Below, piece after piece: positions 7,906-16,987 of a stretch of 23,057 nucleotides of DNA (position 1 is the first letter of the stretch; every line of letters starts with the position of its first letter). The position numbers were made by a program, and so were the translations under genes. Under the pieces are notes generated by a model, which saw only the letters and a program-made list of their open reading frames with translations, had not been told where the DNA came from and did no database searches. The stretch lies in assembly GCA_964426185.1 (NCBI GenBank), contig CAYRPF010000007.1, positions 17,650 through 40,706 of the forward strand, written 5' to 3'. This stretch comes from an uncultured archaeon. GTDB lineage: Archaea > Asgardarchaeota > Lokiarchaeia > Sigyniarchaeales > Promethearchaeaceae.

Positions 7906-8097
7906 GATGACATCTACTCAATTTTACTGAGATGTTAAATAACTTTACTTGGTATTTTAAAAATATTTTGTTTCACTTATTCACTAAAGCGGTAATCCCG
8001 AAAATTGAAATAAAAATAACGAAAAATTAAAAAAATATTATGGGAGTTAAATATTAAGTAAAATTTCCGCCTTTTAAGGCTTGGTGTAGTTTTTGTG

Positions 8098-11000
8098 ATG
8101 AACGATCTTCATTTTATTCAAGAATATAAACCGATTGCGATTAATTTTAAGGATTTTTCTTCTAAACAAATTAATATCACATATAATTTTCCTCTGTTTT
8201 GCACCATCTCGAAAATGCTCCAAACAAATCAAGAAAAGGGTTTCACTTCTGTAATGATTGAGGATGTAAAAGGAGAACAAATGCTTGGATTTGTCTATCA
8301 ACAAGCTGCCGAAATATTAGCCCGATTATCGCCTTCATTATTTCCTTTAACGGTAATTGTATTCAAAGGGGTTTTTAAAACATTACCTTCTAAACAACGA
8401 TTTTTAGAAATTCATCATATAATTTTAGATAATTTTACGTTTATCAATTCCAGCGCAATTGGTGGCCATGAATACTGTGAAATTCAATCTTTTCTAGATT
8501 TATATTATGGTGTATCAAGTGAACCCAACGAATATTTGTTATGGGGAAATTTAATTCATGATTATTTAGCGGAACTATTTGGGGAATTAAATTCATGGAA
8601 AATGATAAAAAAAATATCCAAAATGTCAATATTGAGGGCATTTGAGATTGCATTGGCTCATAACTGGCAGTATCTGGCAGTTTTAGGGAAATCTGAGAAT
8701 GAAATTCGAGAAGAATTCTTGCAAAATTTTGCAGTCAATGAATGGGAATTTTTACAAACCCATTTTCAAGAATATCGAAAAAAATATAATTCTTTTGAAG
8801 TTTTTTGTGAAAAATTCGTGCAATCTCCTGTAATTGGATTGCAAGGACGCATTGATAGATTGATTTTAGACAATCAAAACCACCAATGCACTATTATTGA
8901 AACTAAAACTGGCCGAAGTAAACGATCTTCTCAGTTAATTGCCTATTATCAAGGTTTAACCTATGGGGTGATTTTGAATGATTTATTTAATTGGCGGATT
9001 TCCGAGATTTTAATTGAATATCCCCGTCATCCACCTTCAGAACGCTTTGCTTTTTATCCAGTTTGCCAAAAAAAAGCAGAAAGCAAGGATGTTAACAGAA
9101 ATAAAAAAGATGAGAATACTAAGGAAAATGACTTTTCACTCTATGAAACGCCTGATTTTTTGCGGATCATTCAAATTCGGAACAAAATTTGGAGTTTTTT
9201 GAATGGTTTAGCTCCAAAGAAAATTCCCGATACTCCTTGTGCCCAGTGTAATTCTAAATCTAAGTGTGTGAATTATCGTTGGCTGTTTCCTGAAAAATTT
9301 TATCCACAATCAACATCAGCCATCACTCCAGATAAAAATCCTAGTTTAACTAATTATATTAGGCAAGAAATTTTAGATGATTTAATTCGCCAAAATCTCA
9401 ATTTGGGTAATATTTCGCGCTCACTGAAGCAATGTTTGCGTTTTTATTTAGAATGGTTCTATTACTTTATCGATCAAGAATTTTTGATGCAAAAGCATAT
9501 CAGATTGGAAAGTTTTAATAATATTTCCATTCAAGAAGAAAAAGGGCTTGCAATAGGCGGATTAAAACTAAAACTTAATAATATCGGCAAATTTCCCACA
9601 GAAAGACAAGAAAATGAAAATGGTTCAGCGCAGTATATGTTTGAGATGTATTTCACCCACCAAATTGAATCTCAAAATTCTCGATTTCGTGCAGGAGATT
9701 ATGTAGTTATAACACCCGAAACTTTAAATAAATATAAAATTGGGGGTTTATCTGGCATTTTAGTGGAAATAACTGCTAATTCTTTGATTGTAAGCACTAT
9801 TGAATCGTTTACAAAATTTGGATCGAATTATAATGAACAAGTTTATCGCATTGATTTTTCTGTTTCCAATTATCACCTTTGGCAGTATAAAGGAGCAATT
9901 GACCAATTTCTACAAGCAGCACTTCAACCCGCTTATCCTCATCATTCTTTACTGAGAGATATCCTACTAAATCAGCAATTTCCTCGAAGTATTCCAAAGA
10001 AATTGGATCAAATTTACAAAAACTCCAAACTTAATCAATTATCAAATGAATCTTCTGATAGTAGATCTATCATATCTCTCAATGAGAGTCAAGAAGAAGC
10101 CGTAAAATGCGCTCTTCAAGCAAAACGGTTGGCTTTAATTCAAGGTCCTCCTGGTACTGGCAAAACGACAGTTATTGTTGAAATCATTCATCGGTATTTA
10201 TCTTCATTGACCTTGTCCAGTCAAGATTCACAATCACACAACTCGGGAATGTCGGGGACAACAGAAAAAAGAAGAAAAGGGACCTTAAACCGCTTCATTC
10301 AAACCAAAAATCGCTACGTTCCGCCAAGAATTCCCATCTTGTTGTGTGCTTATACTAATAAAGCGGTAGATACTGTAGTTGAAAAATTAGTGCAATCTTA
10401 TCCAAAAATCAAATGTATTCGGGTGGGAAATGTTCATAGTTCTAGCTCGACTGTGGTAAAAAGTTATAATTTGGAGGTTCTTTCAACCGTAAAGAAGAAA
10501 ATTCAAACCTCTTCGGGTGAAAAAGAACAGTTTACAGTAGATCCATTAAAAGTCCGAATGTTGCTGGAAAGTGCTGATGTTATCGCCACTACTACTATTA
10601 AGGCAGGAACGTTATTATTGCAACCCTATTCATTTGTATTGACAATTATTGATGAAGCGGGGCAAGTGGTGGAACCTGGTGTGTTAATTCCCTTATTGAA
10701 GGGGAAAAAGGGAATTTTAGTGGGTGATCATCAACAATTACCTCCTATTACACATTTTTCTCCCGATATAGAAGAGAAAAATCTTCAAATTTTGCAGAAT
10801 TCTTCTATTCGCGAAAAATTAAATTTTGATTGGAGCAACGGCATAAATAGAAGTCTTTTTGAGCGTCTTATCCCACAATTTAAGGGTACGAACAATTTCA
10901 GTTTATTGAAAATCCAATATCGCATGCATAAAACAATTTCTCAGTTTATTTCTCAAACTTTTTATCAAGGAGAATTAATTCCTGGTGAGATCGAGGGTCG

Positions 11001-11697
11001 AAATATTGGAGAAATTTCTTGGTTGGATATTTTTACCAAATACTATGAAAAATTTGATCTTGAAGAAATCAAAACCCGTCTTAAATCGCCTGTAAATCAA
11101 TTAATTTGGGCTTCGGAACAAAGCATGATCTTTTTAGATACTGCAGATCTTCAAGCATTTGACTCTTCAAAAATTAACTCGAAAAATATTGCTAGTTCAA
11201 AATTTAATACAACTGAAGTTAAGATAATAGCTTCTATAACTAAAGCTTTTCTCGATTTATTGCAAATATCAAACTTCTCGCAAGAAGTAATCCAAGAAAT
11301 TTTCAGCAATCTTGGAATTATATCGCCTTACCGGGCTCACAACGCAAAAATCATTAAAATGATTAAAAAAACAGAAATTTTCGAACATATATCGGTGGAT
11401 ACGGTAGACAGATTTCAAGGCAATGAAAAAGAGGTAATTATTTACAGTTTTGTGGATTCATGCCCTGAACATATTATCAGTTCCTTGACCGCTGATTATC
11501 GACGTTTAAATGTAGCCATCAGTCGAGCCCGCAGTAAGATTATTTTTATCGGCGATTCAACCACACTTACAACCATATCTACTGAAATTTCCCCACAAAC
11601 AGCAAAAATTAAATCAATTATCTCTCAATTAATAGTACATGTAAAAAAAAATGGCGGATATTGGTTAATGCAACCAAATGATTACTATTTAAATTAA
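8098..11697 (+). CDS. Dna2-like nuclease-helicase: Fe-S PD-(D/E)xK (Cas4/AddB-like) nuclease fused to an SF1B (Upf1/Dna2-type) helicase
   Basis: Nuclease: C at 8476, GNLIHDYL, EKFVQSPVIGLQGRID, IETKTG, QGLTY, CAQCNSKSKC. Helicase: LNESQEEAV, GPPGTGKT, AYTNKAVD, IIDEAGQ, LVGDHQQLPP, SLFERL, QYRMH, TVDRFQGNEKE, RRLNVAISRAR. Confidence 0.9.
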   Translation: MNDLHFIQEYKPIAINFKDFSSKQINITYNFPLFCTISKMLQTNQEKGFTSVMIEDVKGEQMLGFVYQQAAEILARLSPSLFPLTVIVFKGVFKTLPSKQRFLEIHHIILDNFTFINSSAIGGHEYCEIQSFLDLYYGVSSEPNEYLLWGNLIHDYLAELFGELNSWKMIKKISKMSILRAFEIALAHNWQYLAVLGKSENEIREEFLQNFAVNEWEFLQTHFQEYRKKYNSFEVFCEKFVQSPVIGLQGRIDRLILDNQNHQCTIIETKTGRSKRSSQLIAYYQGLTYGVILNDLFNWRISEILIEYPRHPPSERFAFYPVCQKKAESKDVNRNKKDENTKENDFSLYETPDFLRIIQIRNKIWSFLNGLAPKKIPDTPCAQCNSKSKCVNYRWLFPEKFYPQSTSAITPDKNPSLTNYIRQEILDDLIRQNLNLGNISRSLKQCLRFYLEWFYYFIDQEFLMQKHIRLESFNNISIQEEKGLAIGGLKLKLNNIGKFPTERQENENGSAQYMFEMYFTHQIESQNSRFRAGDYVVITPETLNKYKIGGLSGILVEITANSLIVSTIESFTKFGSNYNEQVYRIDFSVSNYHLWQYKGAIDQFLQAALQPAYPHHSLLRDILLNQQFPRSIPKKLDQIYKNSKLNQLSNESSDSRSIISLNESQEEAVKCALQAKRLALIQGPPGTGKTTVIVEIIHRYLSSLTLSSQDSQSHNSGMSGTTEKRRKGTLNRFIQTKNRYVPPRIPILLCAYTNKAVDTVVEKLVQSYPKIKCIRVGNVHSSSSTVVKSYNLEVLSTVKKKIQTSSGEKEQFTVDPLKVRMLLESADVIATTTIKAGTLLLQPYSFVLTIIDEAGQVVEPGVLIPLLKGKKGILVGDHQQLPPITHFSPDIEEKNLQILQNSSIREKLNFDWSNGINRSLFERLIPQFKGTNNFSLLKIQYRMHKTISQFISQTFYQGELIPGEIEGRNIGEISWLDIFTKYYEKFDLEEIKTRLKSPVNQLIWASEQSMIFLDTADLQAFDSSKINSKNIASSKFNTTEVKIIASITKAFLDLLQISNFSQEVIQEIFSNLGIISPYRAHNAKIIKMIKKTEIFEHISVDTVDRFQGNEKEVIIYSFVDSCPEHIISSLTADYRRLNVAISRARSKIIFIGDSTTLTTISTEISPQTAKIKSIISQLIVHVKKNGGYWLMQPNDYYLN

Positions 11698-11716
11698 AGG
11701 GAAAAGAATCGAAACT

Positions 11717-14005
11717 ATGAATATTTTAATTATATCAGAGAAAAATAAAGCAGCTCAAGCCATTGCAGAAGCACTAGGCAATACAAAAAAAATAAAAGTA
11801 AACAAAATTGTTTCTGTTTACGAAGTTTCATCTCAAAATATCTATGTTCTCCCTTTACGAGGTCATATTCAACAATATAAAAATACCCCTCCTTATGAAA
11901 AATGGACGGCAAAAGATCCTCGCGATATAATTACCGATCCACATGCAATCGCTAAAATTCCTAATGATTATGCTGGCGCCTACATCTCTGCCCTCAAGAT
12001 ATATGGAAAGAAGTGTGATACATGTATTGTAGGCACTGATGCTGACGTAGAAGGTTGTAATATCGGTTTGATGGATGCCGTTCCCTTTGTTAAAGCCCAA
12101 AATCCCAAAATTAAACTGCAGCAGTTGTGGCTCAATGATTTACAAAAAAAAACCATTCAACATGCTTTTCAGCAGCTAATTCCACCCAAATGGTCGTGGG
12201 CATATTCCGGCGAAGCCCGGGCTCAAATAGATGCAATTATTGGTTTTTCCGCCACTCGAGAAGTTTCCCTGACTTTGAAACCCGTTTTAAATTCCTTAAA
12301 TGTTAAATTTGCTTCTATAGGCCGTGTTCAAACATCTTTATTATATTTAATATATTTACGGGAAGATATCATCCGAAATTTCAAACCTATTCCTTTTTGG
12401 ACTATTTCAGCAGATCTTCAGATAGGAAACTCAATTCTTCGAGTGAACCATCAAGGAAACAATTTTAAGGATAAAAAAATCGCAGAAACTATCTACCAAA
12501 AAATCCAACATGAAAAGTCAGCCCAACTCGAGAAAATCCAAACGAATACGCGTGAGATTTCTCCCCCTCCACCTTTGAATACCTCTCGAGCTTTACAGTT
12601 GATTACAAAAAATTTAAAGATTAACGCTAAGCAAGCATTGCAGGTTTTAGAAGAGTTATATTTGAATAAAATGATTACCTACCCTCGCACCGATTCGGAT
12701 GTTTATTCGCCAAATTATGATCATAAATCTACCTTGCAAAAATTCTTAACACATTCTATTTACGGCAATTATACTGTAGATTTATTCAATAAAAAGCGCA
12801 TATCGCCGCGTCAAGGGCGTGTGAATGCTGGAGATCATTCTCCCATCAGTCCTTTAAAATCTTTGGAGCCGGGTGCAAAAGAATTTGAAAATTCCCGCCA
12901 AGAACGAGTATATAACTTAATTACACGATATTATTTGGCTCTTTTTGGCGAGAAGGCAAAGGAAGCCGACACACGGGTACTTTTCGATATTAAAAAAGAA
13001 AAATTCTTGGGACAGATCAAAATTCTATTATCCTCTGGATTTTATACTATTGCTCCTTTTCTTTCTCCAAAATATGCATGTTCTATGCCAGAATTGACCA
13101 AATTTGTGGATTCAAATCTCCCAAAACCGTCATTTCCGATTAAGAAATTAAATTTTAATGAAAAGGAAACCCAACCACCTCCTCGATATACCGATACATC
13201 TTTACTTCAATTAATGGAGCAAAAAAAGCTTGGAACCAAATCCACTCGCCCAGCCATGATTCAGATTCTAATCGATAGGCAATATATTCAACGGAAAGGT
13301 CGTTCTATATATCTGATGGATTTAGGATTTCTATTGATTGATGCTTTGAAGACCATTTGGACTCCTTTTCTCGATCCTTCTTTTACTGCAAAAGTAGAAA
13401 ACTTATTACAGCAAGTTCAAAACAATCAAATAAAATTCGATTTTGCAGTCAATACCATTAAGGCGGAATTTTTGCAACTTTTTGACCTGTTCCGAACTCA
13501 AAGATCCAAAATTCTTAGTAAAATGCAAGCCATTCAACAAACTGGAAACGTTATTCGGGGAAGAAATAACAAAATTATCTCTTCTAATGCTTCAAACAAA
13601 TTATCTGGTAAATCCCAAAGCAATTATCTTACTAATACAAATTCAAAGACAGGAAATTCAGCACCAGCACCACTCACCACAGCCATGTGTCCAAAATGCA
13701 AAAATATTCCCATGAAATTAGTAATCAGCCCACAAAAGAAGAAAAAATTTCTAGTATGCACCGATCCCAATTGCCAAACATACCTAAGTCTCCCACAAAA
13801 GGGAACACCTCGATTATTAAGGGCCACTTGCTCGATTTGCAATTTCAATATTGTAAAAATCAGCACTTCAAAAAATGGGCATAAATTCCACTATTATATT
13901 TGTCCTCTCTGCTGGAATCACGGATTAGCTCATCAAACGGGTGAAGGTTTCTGCAGCAGTTGCAAAGCCTATCATATCGTAAAAGGAAAATGTGTTAAAC
14001 GCTGA
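11717..14005 (+). CDS. topA: Type IA DNA topoisomerase (archaeal TopA/Top3-like) with a C-terminal multi-Zn-ribbon domain
   Basis: TOPRIM SEK...GHI...TDADVEG, SIGRVQT, catalytic ITYPRTDS (Tyr codon 12680), DHSPISP, TQPPPRY, LGTKSTR, and a C-terminus with 11 Cys. Confidence 0.93.
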   Translation: MNILIISEKNKAAQAIAEALGNTKKIKVNKIVSVYEVSSQNIYVLPLRGHIQQYKNTPPYEKWTAKDPRDIITDPHAIAKIPNDYAGAYISALKIYGKKCDTCIVGTDADVEGCNIGLMDAVPFVKAQNPKIKLQQLWLNDLQKKTIQHAFQQLIPPKWSWAYSGEARAQIDAIIGFSATREVSLTLKPVLNSLNVKFASIGRVQTSLLYLIYLREDIIRNFKPIPFWTISADLQIGNSILRVNHQGNNFKDKKIAETIYQKIQHEKSAQLEKIQTNTREISPPPPLNTSRALQLITKNLKINAKQALQVLEELYLNKMITYPRTDSDVYSPNYDHKSTLQKFLTHSIYGNYTVDLFNKKRISPRQGRVNAGDHSPISPLKSLEPGAKEFENSRQERVYNLITRYYLALFGEKAKEADTRVLFDIKKEKFLGQIKILLSSGFYTIAPFLSPKYACSMPELTKFVDSNLPKPSFPIKKLNFNEKETQPPPRYTDTSLLQLMEQKKLGTKSTRPAMIQILIDRQYIQRKGRSIYLMDLGFLLIDALKTIWTPFLDPSFTAKVENLLQQVQNNQIKFDFAVNTIKAEFLQLFDLFRTQRSKILSKMQAIQQTGNVIRGRNNKIISSNASNKLSGKSQSNYLTNTNSKTGNSAPAPLTTAMCPKCKNIPMKLVISPQKKKKFLVCTDPNCQTYLSLPQKGTPRLLRATCSICNFNIVKISTSKNGHKFHYYICPLCWNHGLAHQTGEGFCSSCKAYHIVKGKCVKR

Positions 14006-14048: not shown

Positions 14049-14110
14049 GATCCTAATAGGAAGCAAGTTCAAATTAATACTATAATTGATCCTAATAGGA
14101 AGTAAGTTCA
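14049..14110 (+). repeat. Two 23-bp direct repeats, each containing the palindrome TCCTA-A-TAGGA; putative tandem operator
   Basis: gatcctaataggaagcaagttca (14049-14071) and gatcctaataggaagtaagttca (14088-14110), one mismatch, separated by a 16-bp AT-rich spacer. Confidence 0.8.
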
Positions 14111-14919
14111 TGCCTCAACCAACAAAAGAAGAGCAAAAGAAAAATCCAAAAAAAAAAAAGAATTCGGAATTTAAAAAGAAATTAATCATTTTAGCCAAAT
14201 TCTTAACTCGTAGTCTAATGTTACGGGTGTTTATCTTGGTATTTTTCCTAAACTTGTTGCTGGGTGTAATTTACTCCATATTAGAAGGAATTCCATTTTA
14301 TTTAGGTATTTATTGGGCTACAGATACTCTTACAAACACGGGTTCTGGGCTTGTACCTCCATCTCAAACCCGTACATGGCTGTTAACCACTTTTTTTATG
14401 TGGATTGGTTTAGGCATCACATTATTGTTTGTTGAGTTTGTTTATGTACATATTTTTCAAAAACTAAAGGGGGACCGTGAAATAAAATTCTCGAATCATA
14501 TTATATTGATAGGTTGGAATCCAAAAGTTCGTCATTTCCTTAAAAACTTGCCTGGAGATTTAGGTGGAGATCATAATTACGTGTTAATTGCGGATATTAA
14601 AGATCGTCCGTTTGATTTACCTAAGGTGGTAGAATTTATTAGAGGAAATCCAGAAGAAGAGCGAATTTTGAAGCGTGCTGGAATTGAGCGCGCTCAGCAA
14701 GCGATGATTGTTGTAGAAGATGATGCAGAAGCGGTTTTAATTGCCATGACGATTCAAAGCTTGAATATTGATGTAAGAATCAGCGTAAATTTGCAGAATG
14801 AAGAAAATGTTAAACATCTTAAGAGATTAGGTATTGAAGAAATTGTTTGCGATGAGGAATTAACGGGAAATGCTTTAATCGAAGCGTTTTATAAAAATCA
14901 AGAAGATTATTTTTTGTAA
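14110..14919 (+). CDS. 2TM ion channel with C-terminal RCK/TrkA-N domain (MthK-like) and a non-canonical filter
   Basis: TM1, pore helix (IYWATDTLTNTGSGLVPP), TM2, then RCK: HIILIGW, FIRGNP, LKRAGIERA, AVLIAMTIQSLN, HLKRLGIEEIV. ATG at 14110 preferred over the TTG at 14086. Confidence 0.85.
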   Translation: MPQPTKEEQKKNPKKKKNSEFKKKLIILAKFLTRSLMLRVFILVFFLNLLLGVIYSILEGIPFYLGIYWATDTLTNTGSGLVPPSQTRTWLLTTFFMWIGLGITLLFVEFVYVHIFQKLKGDREIKFSNHIILIGWNPKVRHFLKNLPGDLGGDHNYVLIADIKDRPFDLPKVVEFIRGNPEEERILKRAGIERAQQAMIVVEDDAEAVLIAMTIQSLNIDVRISVNLQNEENVKHLKRLGIEEIVCDEELTGNALIEAFYKNQEDYFL

Positions 14920-14930
14920 TAAACGAAATC

Positions 14931-15659
14931 TCAGAAATTTTCAGTACCCAGCAAGAAAATTGTTTCAATTTGTTCTATAGGAAACATCATAAAATGTTCA
15001 TAAGAAATAAGAATATTTGATTCATGGTTATTATTTTCTATTTCTTCTTCAAATATGCCCTGATTCTCATGATTTTTCGACAGTGAATCATTCTGATTCT
15101 GATCACTACTTTCTTCTACTTTTTCTTTTAAATAAGGGATTCCCCCGATGATGATACAATCGTAGAAGACTAGATGCATATCTTCATCTCCCACCAAGCG
15201 ATCTCCAATAATAATTCCGTGATTTTTTAAAATGGCTACTGGACGGTGGAGTATTTCACCAGCTACAAAATCTAAATGATCAATGAGTTTAGAACCAGGG
15301 TTATGGTAAAGAACTGCGGTATGTAATAGACGGACAATATTTGGATAAATCGCTGAAAAGCGCGCACTGTCAAATTCTTTGATAATTTCGGGAGTTAAAC
15401 GAACAATATAAATAATATCATTGAATGAATTGAGATGTAATTTCTGTTCAGTAGAAAAGGCTCTGCCTTGGCGTAACCCTACGGCCAAACCTGAAATATC
15501 CAGAAAAAATTCGTTAATCACCACATGGTCGGAGAAAATCATCTTAACAACTTGATTCTGCAATTTTATGATAATTCCCCCTGTATATTCTCCTGGATGT
15601 AGTACATTAGCATATTTATCGTAAATAATAATAGGATCGGGGTTTTCTTCTGTTTCCAT
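14931..15659 (-). CDS. Hypothetical protein, beta-rich, possibly with Sm/LSm-like domain(s)
   Basis: Long ORF filling the gap between two + strand genes. Start is ATG 15659 or GTG 15677. The fold suggestion is a weak motif resemblance only. Confidence 0.65.
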   Translation of the reverse strand: METEENPDPIIIYDKYANVLHPGEYTGGIIIKLQNQVVKMIFSDHVVINEFFLDISGLAVGLRQGRAFSTEQKLHLNSFNDIIYIVRLTPEIIKEFDSARFSAIYPNIVRLLHTAVLYHNPGSKLIDHLDFVAGEILHRPVAILKNHGIIIGDRLVGDEDMHLVFYDCIIIGGIPYLKEKVEESSDQNQNDSLSKNHENQGIFEEEIENNNHESNILISYEHFMMFPIEQIETIFLLGTENF

Positions 15660-15739
15660 GGTGTGATTTTCTCCCACTCTAATTGTTTTAAATTAATCAA
15701 CACCTATATATTTTTAGCGCTTGGGTGTATGATTTACTT

Positions 15740-16987
15740 ATGGATTTTTCGGAAACAGAGAAAGCGCTTTTGAATCATCTTCAAACCTCTTTAGGTCCAT
15801 TTGAAAAATTCGTAGCTAAAATGGATATTGAGGAAGTCCTCCCTCTTGTTCCCGATCGAGCTTATGTCATTGATAAGATTTCTGAACTTCTAAATAACCC
15901 CCAGAATAATGTTATTATTCCCATTATTGGGGAAGTTGGCATGGGTAAAACTCACTTATGCTGGCAAATTAAAAAATCTTTAGATATTCATGCAATTCCA
16001 GTTTTCTTAGAAATTCCAGAAGAAGCTAAATTTTTCTATTATAATTTATATACTGAATTGGTGGAAAATCTTGGAGCCGAGAGATTGCGGGATCTATCCA
16101 TTCAAATATCTGATTTATGGGGTGCACAAGAGAAAAAATATGGGCTCTTTCGTTCCAGTAACGTCGATAGAGTCCTTTCTCGAGCTAAAGAAAGTAAGTT
16201 ATTTAAAATGAGCGAACATCCTTCAGAGCTTGAAGATGTAATGCGCTGTATTATAACTCATGCCATCGATCCAGATAAATCTCATTCCGCAGAACGTTGG
16301 TTATTGGGTGAGGTTATGGATCCTGATGAACTATATTATTTAGGGCTTTCTACTAATCTAAATGCCCCCTTTGTAGCAATGGAGTTATTACAACTGTTAT
16401 TAAAATTTCTTCCCGAGGGTTTACTATTAATAATCGATGATTTGGATGAATCTTGGTCGAGATATAATAATCCATATCATATTGAAGATGACTGGACCAT
16501 GATACCTTTCACTTCAACCATATCAAATAATCAAGGGCTTGAATCTTCCACATCAGAAATTAAAAATGGAGAAAAACAACATTTGGTCAAAATTCCCGAT
16601 TTTTTTCAAGATTTATATCAACTTTTTGCAACTTTTCCCAATATACACTTGGTCTTTACCATTAAACCTGATAACGAAGGAGAAATCATGCAGTATTTTG
16701 AACCATTAATTGAAGAAACGGAAGCAATTAATAGCATTATTTTACCTGCATTCTCGGAAAATGATCTTAAAAATTTCTATAATTCAGCAATTCAAATTTA
16801 CTGCAAATTAAAAGGATTAAATTATAATAAGATTACGCCGCTTTTTCCGTGGAATTCCGAATTCTTTCACCTTATTTATAATAAAACTAGTGGAAATCCA
16901 CGTAAAATCATTCGCAAATTGCAAGATGCGTTTGATTATTACTTATATGATCGTAAGCCTGTGGATAAAATAGTAAATTTAATCTAA
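15740..16987 (+). CDS. P-loop AAA+ ATPase of unknown function
   Basis: Walker A GEVGMGKT, Walker B LLLIIDDLDE, sensor-2-like SGNPRKIIRKL, and a helical insertion containing AERWLLGE. ATG at 15740 (GTG at 15725 is the alternative). Confidence 0.8.
   Translation: MDFSETEKALLNHLQTSLGPFEKFVAKMDIEEVLPLVPDRAYVIDKISELLNNPQNNVIIPIIGEVGMGKTHLCWQIKKSLDIHAIPVFLEIPEEAKFFYYNLYTELVENLGAERLRDLSIQISDLWGAQEKKYGLFRSSNVDRVLSRAKESKLFKMSEHPSELEDVMRCIITHAIDPDKSHSAERWLLGEVMDPDELYYLGLSTNLNAPFVAMELLQLLLKFLPEGLLLIIDDLDESWSRYNNPYHIEDDWTMIPFTSTISNNQGLESSTSEIKNGEKQHLVKIPDFFQDLYQLFATFPNIHLVFTIKPDNEGEIMQYFEPLIEETEAINSIILPAFSENDLKNFYNSAIQIYCKLKGLNYNKITPLFPWNSEFFHLIYNKTSGNPRKIIRKLQDAFDYYLYDRKPVDKIVNLI

Follow-up and report, generated by a model that had tools for sequence, protein, structure and literature searches.

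A Dna2-like gene followed by a type IA topoisomerase gene

The stretch of DNA analysed here (the window: 23,057 nucleotides of contig CAYRPF010000007.1, assembly GCA_964426185.1) carries two consecutive forward-strand genes that are the subject of this work, one coding for a Dna2-like nuclease-helicase (gene A, 1199 aa, 8098..11697, open reading frame (ORF) 8095/8098) and one for a Top3-like type IA topoisomerase (gene B, 762 aa, 11717..14005). The arrangement is as the original prediction had it: the two ORFs are co-directional, the TAA of gene A ends at 11697 and the ATG of gene B lies at 11717, leaving a gap of 19 bp. Alignments with homologues back both start codons, M1 and the earliest conserved residues being in register. 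Gene A is preceded by an AT-rich intergenic region (7906..8097, + strand), in which TTTTAA, a TATA-like sequence some 20-24 nt ahead of the ATG, marks a putative promoter. At the junction (11690..11716, + strand) a TTTAAA covers the end and stop of gene A and is followed by the 19-bp gap, with no oligo-T and no clear Shine-Dalgarno sequence. The reported lack of a terminator also held: neither the gap nor the final 150 nt of gene A contains a stretch of at least five T, and the closest T5, at 11543, lies within coding sequence. The source had been taken for a probable Asgard genome, and it is placed in the same genus as Candidatus Harpocratesius repetitus FW102. Its assembly (G000) is 92% complete, a figure that applies to the searches of this genome below.

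Pfam matches, alignments and a structural model divide the gene A product into an N-terminal beta-rich domain (residues ~26-110), an Fe-S PD-(D/E)XK nuclease (~115-400), a helical/beta-barrel middle region (~415-640) and a superfamily 1B (SF1B) helicase (~660-1160). Pfam detects PDDEXK_1 (40.7 bits), AAA_11 (158.7 bits) and AAA_12 (147 bits), and the Dna2 family itself (PF08696) is matched over residues 109-233 at 29.4 bits against a gathering cut-off of 22.4, a modest margin. In an alignment of 19-20 homologues the nuclease residues D253, E268-x-K270, Q285 and Y289 are invariant, as are the cysteines C127 and C381-x2-C384-x5-C390, and the CX2CX5C motif is present in all close homologues. Four such cysteines form the Fe-S 'staple' of Dna2, AddB and Cas4; by its spacing the gene A pattern is a Dna2-type iron staple, and cluster binding is predicted. 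Helicase motifs I-VI are likewise intact and invariant (GPPGTGKT, DEAGQ, GDHQQLPP, QYRM, TVDRFQG and RRLNVAISR). Judged from its active-site residues, the protein is catalytically intact.

An AlphaFold2 model built from the homologue alignment (predicted template-modelling score, pTM, 0.82; mean predicted local distance difference test, pLDDT, 78.8) was compared with known structures using Foldseek. The top matches are the mouse Dna2 structures 5EAN, 5EAW and 5EAX (E 1e-50, query TM-score (TMq) 0.65, target TM-score (TMt) 0.74, ~1250 columns), and the next ones, Upf1, IGHMBP2 and Sen1, cover the helicase half only, at a TMq of about 0.4. Going by the model, gene A is a Dna2 in architecture and fold, and its architecture and Fe-S cysteines confirm the earlier call of a Dna2-type nuclease-helicase. 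It has the domain order of eukaryotic and canonical archaeal Dna2, including that of Pyrococcus (beta-rich N-terminus, C...CX2CX5C-stapled nuclease, beta-barrel, SF1B helicase), and shares with these proteins the intact catalytic motifs, the full-length fold (TM 0.65/0.74) and the helicase clade of canonical archaeal Dna2. It differs from canonical archaeal Dna2 in being about 200 aa longer, through an extra N-terminal domain and low-complexity inserts.

Two inserts, both with pLDDT below 50, stand out: a K/D/N-rich one in the nuclease (residues ~326-345, window ~9070-9130), which is missing from most homologues, and an S/T/Q-rich one in helicase domain 1A (~709-737, window ~10220-10310). Two metagenomic Loki-type homologues, P0018 (1571 aa) and P0019 (1566 aa), are some 370 aa longer through insertions before and within the helicase. 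As candidate Dna2-topoisomerase fusions they were rejected, because the extra length consists of these helicase insertions and includes no topoisomerase domain.

Gene B (Pfam Topoisom_bac, 315.7 bits; Toprim, 30.6 bits) codes for a Toprim domain and core (1-~610), an N/S-rich linker and a Cys-rich C-terminus (658-759), and shares with TOP3B, TOP3A and Sulfolobus Topo III the Toprim and core, the catalytic Tyr and the Cys-rich zinc C-terminal domain. In 11 aligned orthologues E8, D108, D110, E112 and the catalytic Y322 (in YPRTDS) are invariant, together with 11 cysteines (658/661/681/686, 705/708/729/732 and 746/749/759) that, by our own grouping, would form about three Zn-ribbon-like motifs. 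Scores against PDB chains are 197 bits for human TOP3B, 135 for TOP3A, 112 for Sulfolobus Topo III, 96 for E. coli Topo I and 88 for E. coli Topo III, so the protein is closer to Top3 than to bacterial Topo I (TOP3B 197 vs E. coli Topo I 96 bits) and its designation as Top3-type stands. For comparison, a classical archaeal Topo III from a different Asgard family reaches 382 bits with Sulfolobus Topo III. The best NCBIfam matches of gene B are archaeal 'topoisomerase I' models, all below their cut-offs. Gene B is the sole PF01131 match in the window genome, which means that no reverse gyrase was found there; because it is the only such match, gene B would be the general type IA enzyme of the cell, presumably covering general housekeeping roles.

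Conservation of the tandem in two lokiarchaeal families

Fifteen genomes from two sister families of Lokiarchaeales bear on the tandem count, 14 from family f1 (including G000) and one from f2. In a first survey, of the 40 nearest genomes, the topoisomerase gene is nearly universal; the Dna2-like gene is present in 13/13 other f1 genomes and in the single f2 genome (1/1) and is essentially absent from families f3 and f4. The Dna2-like gene lies directly upstream of the topoisomerase gene on the same strand in 11 of the 15 f1 and f2 genomes, which represent at least five genera. Within f1 the two are separated by 19 bp in G000, 110 bp in Ca. H. repetitus FW102 (G001), 11 bp in G002, 105 bp in G005, 96 bp in G006, 33 bp in G007, 45 bp in Ca. 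Lokiarchaeum ossiferum (G010), 27 bp in Promethearchaeum syntrophicum MK-D1 (G011), 33 bp in G012 and 21 bp in G013; the gap in the f2 genome, G014, is 21 bp. In MK-D1 (NZ_CP042905.2) the Dna2-like gene occupies 2,137,031-2,140,414 and the topoisomerase gene 2,134,706-2,137,003, both on the minus strand; in L. ossiferum (CP104013.1) they occupy 5,961,425-5,964,778 and 5,964,824-5,967,085, respectively, on the plus strand. In G008 the genes lie at facing contig ends, consistent with a tandem across a contig break.

The 110-bp gap of H. repetitus FW102 (L011 9717-9826) is taken up by roughly six copies of ATTAGATTAAAAA in tandem, which shows that the spacer can expand without splitting the pair.

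Upstream, the flanking gene codes for an aminotransferase or for a 1300-aa protein, or the flank consists of unrelated genes; downstream lie a TrkA-like gene, the genes X and Y described below, or again unrelated genes. The pair stays throughout, and in G005, where neither flank is common to any other locus, the tandem is still kept. That flanks change between genera, and are unique in G005, yet the tandem persists argues for some selection keeping the Dna2-like and topoisomerase genes linked.

In a wider survey of 400 Asgard genomes using a nuclease-domain profile, the tandem was not found outside f1 and f2. Strong matches to the Loki-type nuclease domain came from f1, f2 and f17 only, and in f17, f16, f13 and f18 the Dna2-like and topoisomerase genes are on different contigs or far apart. 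No topoisomerase gene lies within ~8 kb of Dna2 at six loci inspected (Hodarchaeales, f13, f18, Heimdallarchaeum aukensis, a 'Thor'-labelled genome and Halobacterium). One distant Loki-type homologue, P0020, has a topoisomerase gene 4 kb off on the opposite strand, and two other distant homologues have none nearby. A sequence search with the gene A nuclease domain among word-indexed proteins returned only eight close relatives, and a search for related loci with a 12-row nuclease alignment returned close lokiarchaeal relatives only. Family f3, a sister family in the same order (n=135 genomes, many near-complete), has an orthologous topoisomerase with 46-49% identity; no Dna2-like gene lies near it, and none was detected in the 135 genomes. 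Since the tandem is confined to f1 and f2, and f3 keeps the topoisomerase without a Dna2-like gene, the linkage is, on these sequence comparisons, a derived feature of one lokiarchaeal lineage. The adjacency first noted in the window is therefore not limited to one genome, recurring in several genera of two families among changing flanks, but it does not reach beyond these families in the Asgard genomes surveyed.

Several attributes of the pair are signs of an operon, namely the shared strand, the short gap (19 bp; 11-110 bp in 10 other genomes) and the lack of T5 or longer runs in the window gap. At the Promethearchaeum loci, where the gap is 27-33 nt, the topoisomerase start is preceded, at 4 nt, by a GGTGAT Shine-Dalgarno sequence, such as a gene inside an operon would be expected to have. 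These attributes make co-transcription of the pair likely, and the tight spacing has other readings too.

We interpret the tandem as a lineage-specific pairing of a Dna2-like helicase with Top3 that has been kept most likely for functional cooperation, and as derived rather than a precursor of the eukaryotic machinery of Dna2 and Sgs1-Top3-Rmi1 (STR), an interpretation that we hold with roughly even confidence. The foremost alternative, possible if less probable, is that the adjacency is a matter of descent: two independent housekeeping genes with their own promoters would sit side by side in a little-rearranged chromosomal block within one family. A number of observations weigh against the cooperative interpretation, most of them in favour of this alternative. 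A wider block of about nine genes is syntenic in many of the f1 and f2 genomes, and X, Y and the B3_4, DtxR-like and radical-SAM genes keep their synteny at 5-10 of these loci; part of the conservation of the pair is thus plain shared ancestry. In genus g3 (G004 and G009) the topoisomerase gene is inverted, with X and Y between (Dna2> X> Y> <Top), and G003, an 80%-complete assembly, yielded no topoisomerase gene, either after the Dna2-like gene or elsewhere. The f3 orthologue, which has no Dna2-like partner, implies a topoisomerase that is independent of the Dna2-like gene. The Dna2-like protein, moreover, evolves much faster than the topoisomerase when the same genome pairs are compared (28-53% vs 39-78% identity).

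The junction itself also provides points of this kind. The TTTAAA, at the 3' terminus of gene A, occupies positions -27..-22 relative to the topoisomerase ATG and mirrors the TTTTAA before the gene A ATG. It is well placed, and TATA-like matches occur at only ~7% of background positions across these coding regions; it is therefore plausible that the topoisomerase is transcribed separately, as a leaderless mRNA, and its gene may have a promoter of its own. A similar TATA-like box is found in L. ossiferum, and the gaps of G005 and G006 contain T5-T6 runs that are possible archaeal terminators. What counts against descent as a full explanation is that the pair is kept in G005 with wholly different flanks, and in f2, and that upstream neighbours vary by genus while order, strand and short gaps are constant in the 11 genomes and their genera.

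Neighbouring genes

In the window a TrkA-N/RCK K+-channel-like gene (14086-14919, + strand) lies between the topoisomerase gene and X; among the loci compared, its homologues occur only at the two loci of genus g1, to which the window belongs, and it looks like a genus-specific insertion into a conserved block. X (14931-15677, - strand) codes for an acidic protein of 248 aa that belongs to no family and has weak Sm-like structural matches (TM 0.24-0.28, on a poor model). Divergent from it is Y (15725-16987, + strand), coding for a 420-aa P-loop ATPase that is ORC/KAP/BrxD-like (Atlas). The X/Y pair stands beside the Dna2-like/topoisomerase pair in many f1 and f2 genomes. All of the f3 genomes searched for Y (22/22) have it, although no Dna2-like gene was detected in f3; Y is thus order-wide, and X/Y is not phyletically tied to the Dna2-like gene. 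A four-gene module of X, Y and the pair was ruled out on this count, and also because Y is unlinked to the pair in G005. The other genes nearby are of a kind usual on archaeal chromosomes (radical SAM, TrmO, aminotransferase, ribosomal protein L10e and an ACD-like gene). As the original prediction stated, no RecQ or Rmi1 gene is among the genes of the window.

This setting bears on the proposal that gene A is a defence-type helicase-nuclease (Mokosh/Hhe-like) that happens to lie beside a topoisomerase gene, perhaps together with the BrxD/KAP-like ATPase Y, which we regard as unlikely. The helicase domain does match defence models (PADLOC MkoA, 261 bits; NCBIfam PLuB, ProA and Hhe), gene A is fast-evolving and patchy in its phyletic distribution, Y resembles BrxC/D/KAP ATPases (Atlas), and canonical hodarchaeal Dna2 genes abut Eco57I/MmeI-type methylase genes. 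All the defence-model matches are below cut-off, however, and are limited to the generic Upf1-like helicase core, whereas the Fe-S nuclease and the full-length fold are those of Dna2. Gene A is single-copy, at one chromosomal locus, in 13/13 other f1 genomes searched; GC content is even over the region, with no base-composition anomaly, and no mobile-element genes are found near the pair among the window genes. Y, being order-wide, is independent of the Dna2-like gene.

Relationship to eukaryotic Dna2 and Top3

Likeness to the eukaryotic proteins was judged from PDB-chain scores and published trees; our helicase-domain maximum-likelihood tree covers non-eukaryotic sequences. In a phmmer search against PDB, gene A scores 110 bits with IGHMBP2 and UPF1, more than the 99 bits it reaches with DNA2, and shows no orthologue-level affinity to eukaryotic DNA2 above that to other Upf1-like helicases. 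The nuclease-domain profile also found weaker homologues of ~970-1150 aa in other Asgard families. Those of f16 (Hodarchaeales) and f13 score 221 and 203 bits, respectively, with mouse DNA2 and 126-133 bits with UPF1, and have stronger Pfam Dna2 matches than gene A. A search starting from the f16 protein returned proteins labelled Hodarchaeales, Heimdallarchaeaceae, Heimdallarchaeum aukensis, Thorarchaeota and Halobacteria, annotated at source as 'DNA2/NAM7 family helicase' or 'DNA replication ATP-dependent helicase Dna2'.

In the helicase-domain tree the 14 Loki-type proteins are monophyletic (Shimodaira-Hasegawa-like approximate likelihood ratio test, SH-aLRT, 97) and nested in a clade with support of 99 that unites all nuclease-bearing Dna2-like proteins, including the canonical Dna2 of Heimdall, Hod and haloarchaeal genomes; two apparent exceptions in this clade also have a PD-(D/E)XK domain. 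The canonical archaeal Dna2 proteins form a group adjacent to the Loki clade that does not include it, and 20 generic Upf1-like helicases fall separately. A second, canonical Dna2 was not found in the window genome, gene A being its sole Dna2-like gene. Given its own clade in the tree and the lack of a second canonical Dna2 in the genome, gene A is, by these comparisons, a divergent, fast-evolving, lineage-specific branch of the archaeal Dna2-like clade. Set against canonical Dna2, it is distant in sequence (99 vs 221/203 bits to DNA2), belongs to a Lokiarchaeales clade of its own, and is the sole form found adjoining a topoisomerase gene.

The canonical genes have contexts of their own. Those of the Hodarchaeales type are directly followed by an Eco57I/MmeI-type DNA methyltransferase gene (L038 5528-7291, - strand; L045 10972-12714, + strand), stop and start overlapping in one of the two loci, an unexpected restriction-modification-like neighbour for a replication or repair gene. 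In Heimdallarchaeum aukensis (CP084166.1, L042 8001-12533) the canonical Dna2 gene and a gene for an RFC/Rad17-like clamp-loader subunit converge, 16 bp apart; the context of this Dna2 gene is replication-linked, unlike that of the lokiarchaeal gene.

A similar picture emerges for the topoisomerase. The Hodarchaeales genome G099 carries two type IA paralogues (L054 1888-4383; L053 1819-4137), of which the 831-aa one scores 230 bits with TOP3B and 205 with TOP3A and is thus closer to both eukaryotic proteins than gene B; the other scores ~128 bits. A published tree ties eukaryotic Top3 to the Top3 of Heimdall-clan, Sif and Wukong archaea, not to that of Loki (PMC12680538). By sequence scores the most eukaryote-like Top3 is not lokiarchaeal, in agreement with that tree.

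The original prediction had read the pair as a Dna2-Top3 partnership predating eukaryotes, which would make it an ancestral end-resection module inherited by them. The Dna2 architecture and fold, the Asgard genome, a topoisomerase more like TOP3B than like Sulfolobus Topo III, and the relationship of eukaryotic Dna2 to some Asgard homologues reported in PMC12680538 all speak for this reading, but we now think it very improbable. The tandem was not found outside f1 and f2 among the 400 Asgard genomes, the more eukaryote-like orthologues of Hodarchaeales and f13 are unlinked to a topoisomerase gene, as are those at the Heimdallarchaeum, Halobacterium and 'Thor'-labelled loci, and gene A itself scores lower with DNA2 than with UPF1 or IGHMBP2. 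The topoisomerase of f3 without a Dna2-like gene, and the published placement of eukaryotic Top3, further disfavour a pre-eukaryotic module.

The complement of repair genes points the same way. No RecQ was found over cut-off in the window genome (TIGR00614 best 62.5 against a cut-off of 219.8 bits), and the Rmi1 model PF08585 has no match there, nor any in control genomes. The helicase with which Top3 works in bacteria and eukaryotes is probably missing from the genome. A NurA-domain gene (557 aa; contig C73, L052 7520-9193) stands solitary among metabolic genes, with no HerA, Mre11 or Rad50 gene beside it in the available 12 kb; given this gene, the organism probably keeps an archaeal-type resection nuclease. 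Compared with eukaryotic resection by Dna2 and Sgs1/BLM-Top3-Rmi1, the window genome yielded no RecQ, and no Dna2-Top3 linkage was seen at the loci examined in the Asgard lineages nearest eukaryotes or in Halobacterium.

A proposed helicase-topoisomerase partnership

An RNA-directed module, in which an Upf1-like helicase would act with a TOP3B-like RNA topoisomerase and possibly an Sm-like X, would suit the best PDB sequence matches of the two proteins (IGHMBP2 and UPF1; TOP3B) and the Sm-like matches of X, but is most unlikely given a nuclease of the Cas4/AddB/Dna2 Fe-S type, which is a DNA-end nuclease fold, the superposition of the whole of gene A on Dna2, and an X that is poorly modelled and not tied to the pair.

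In every domain of life, partnerships between helicases and type IA topoisomerases play a central part in genome stability, and to our knowledge the well-studied ones all use superfamily 2 (SF2) helicases, either RecQ-like or as the reverse-gyrase module. The lokiarchaeal pair resembles RecQ-Topo III, Sgs1/BLM-Top3-Rmi1 and Hel112-SsTop3 in joining a helicase to a type IA topoisomerase. It differs from the RecQ-family partnerships in having, instead of an SF2 RecQ, an SF1B helicase (5'-3', Upf1-like) that contains a nuclease, and in that its link is a genomic one. The domain order of reverse gyrase, helicase then topoisomerase, is mirrored by the lokiarchaeal gene order. Because RecQ was not found in the genome, the role of Top3-partner helicase would be left vacant.

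On the cooperative interpretation, the placement of the Dna2-like gene directly before the resident topoisomerase gene would date from the common ancestor of f1 and f2, and the tandem would then have been retained through several rearrangements of its surroundings. The 5'-3' SF1B motor with its single-stranded DNA (ssDNA) nuclease might act on flaps, on forks that are stalled or converging, and on recombination intermediates, unwinding and trimming them. A type IA topoisomerase needs ssDNA, and the strands so exposed could allow gene B to decatenate or dissolve such intermediates. We infer the co-expression of the pair, its cooperation and its substrates by analogy, and the cooperation would most likely be of the kind known from RecQ-Topo III, Sgs1-Top3-Rmi1, Hel112-SsTop3 and reverse gyrase.

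Published work offers some precedent. SsTop3 and Hel112 form a stable complex, and RecQ and Topo III cooperate (PMC11894792); a review reports that the reverse gyrase of P. abyssi, which has a type IA module inside, interacts with DNA2 (PMC8185306); and the Dna2-like protein of P. abyssi binds RPA (PMC3820547). For the lokiarchaeal proteins, a complex prediction with the full topoisomerase and the N-terminal domain of gene A (residues 1-113), one of many possible domain pairs, gave a score of 0.02 (mark 0.32), which counts neither for nor against binding.

A bolder proposal, which we offer tentatively and consider rather doubtful, is that the Dna2-like SF1B nuclease-helicase is the dedicated motor of a eukaryote-like Top3 in Lokiarchaeales, the two making up an undescribed dissolution or decatenation machine. 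If true, such a machine would correspond to reverse gyrase, or to the RecQ-Top3 dissolvasome, in a split form armed with a nuclease.

The gene families themselves, Asgard homologues of Dna2 and archaeal Top3 are already known; in the literature searched we found no description of the conserved Dna2-like/Top3 tandem of Lokiarchaeales. As a derived lokiarchaeal trait, the linkage should not be taken to show that the archaeal ancestor already had the eukaryotic Dna2-STR resection machinery in assembled form, the more eukaryote-like Dna2 and Top3 genes being found, unlinked, in Heimdall-clan genomes. Two named strains whose genomes are complete, P. syntrophicum MK-D1 and L. ossiferum, carry the tandem, which makes it testable at the bench. 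If the pairing is functional, a Dna2-shaped SF1B nuclease-helicase would represent a new solution to the partnership between helicase and topoisomerase.

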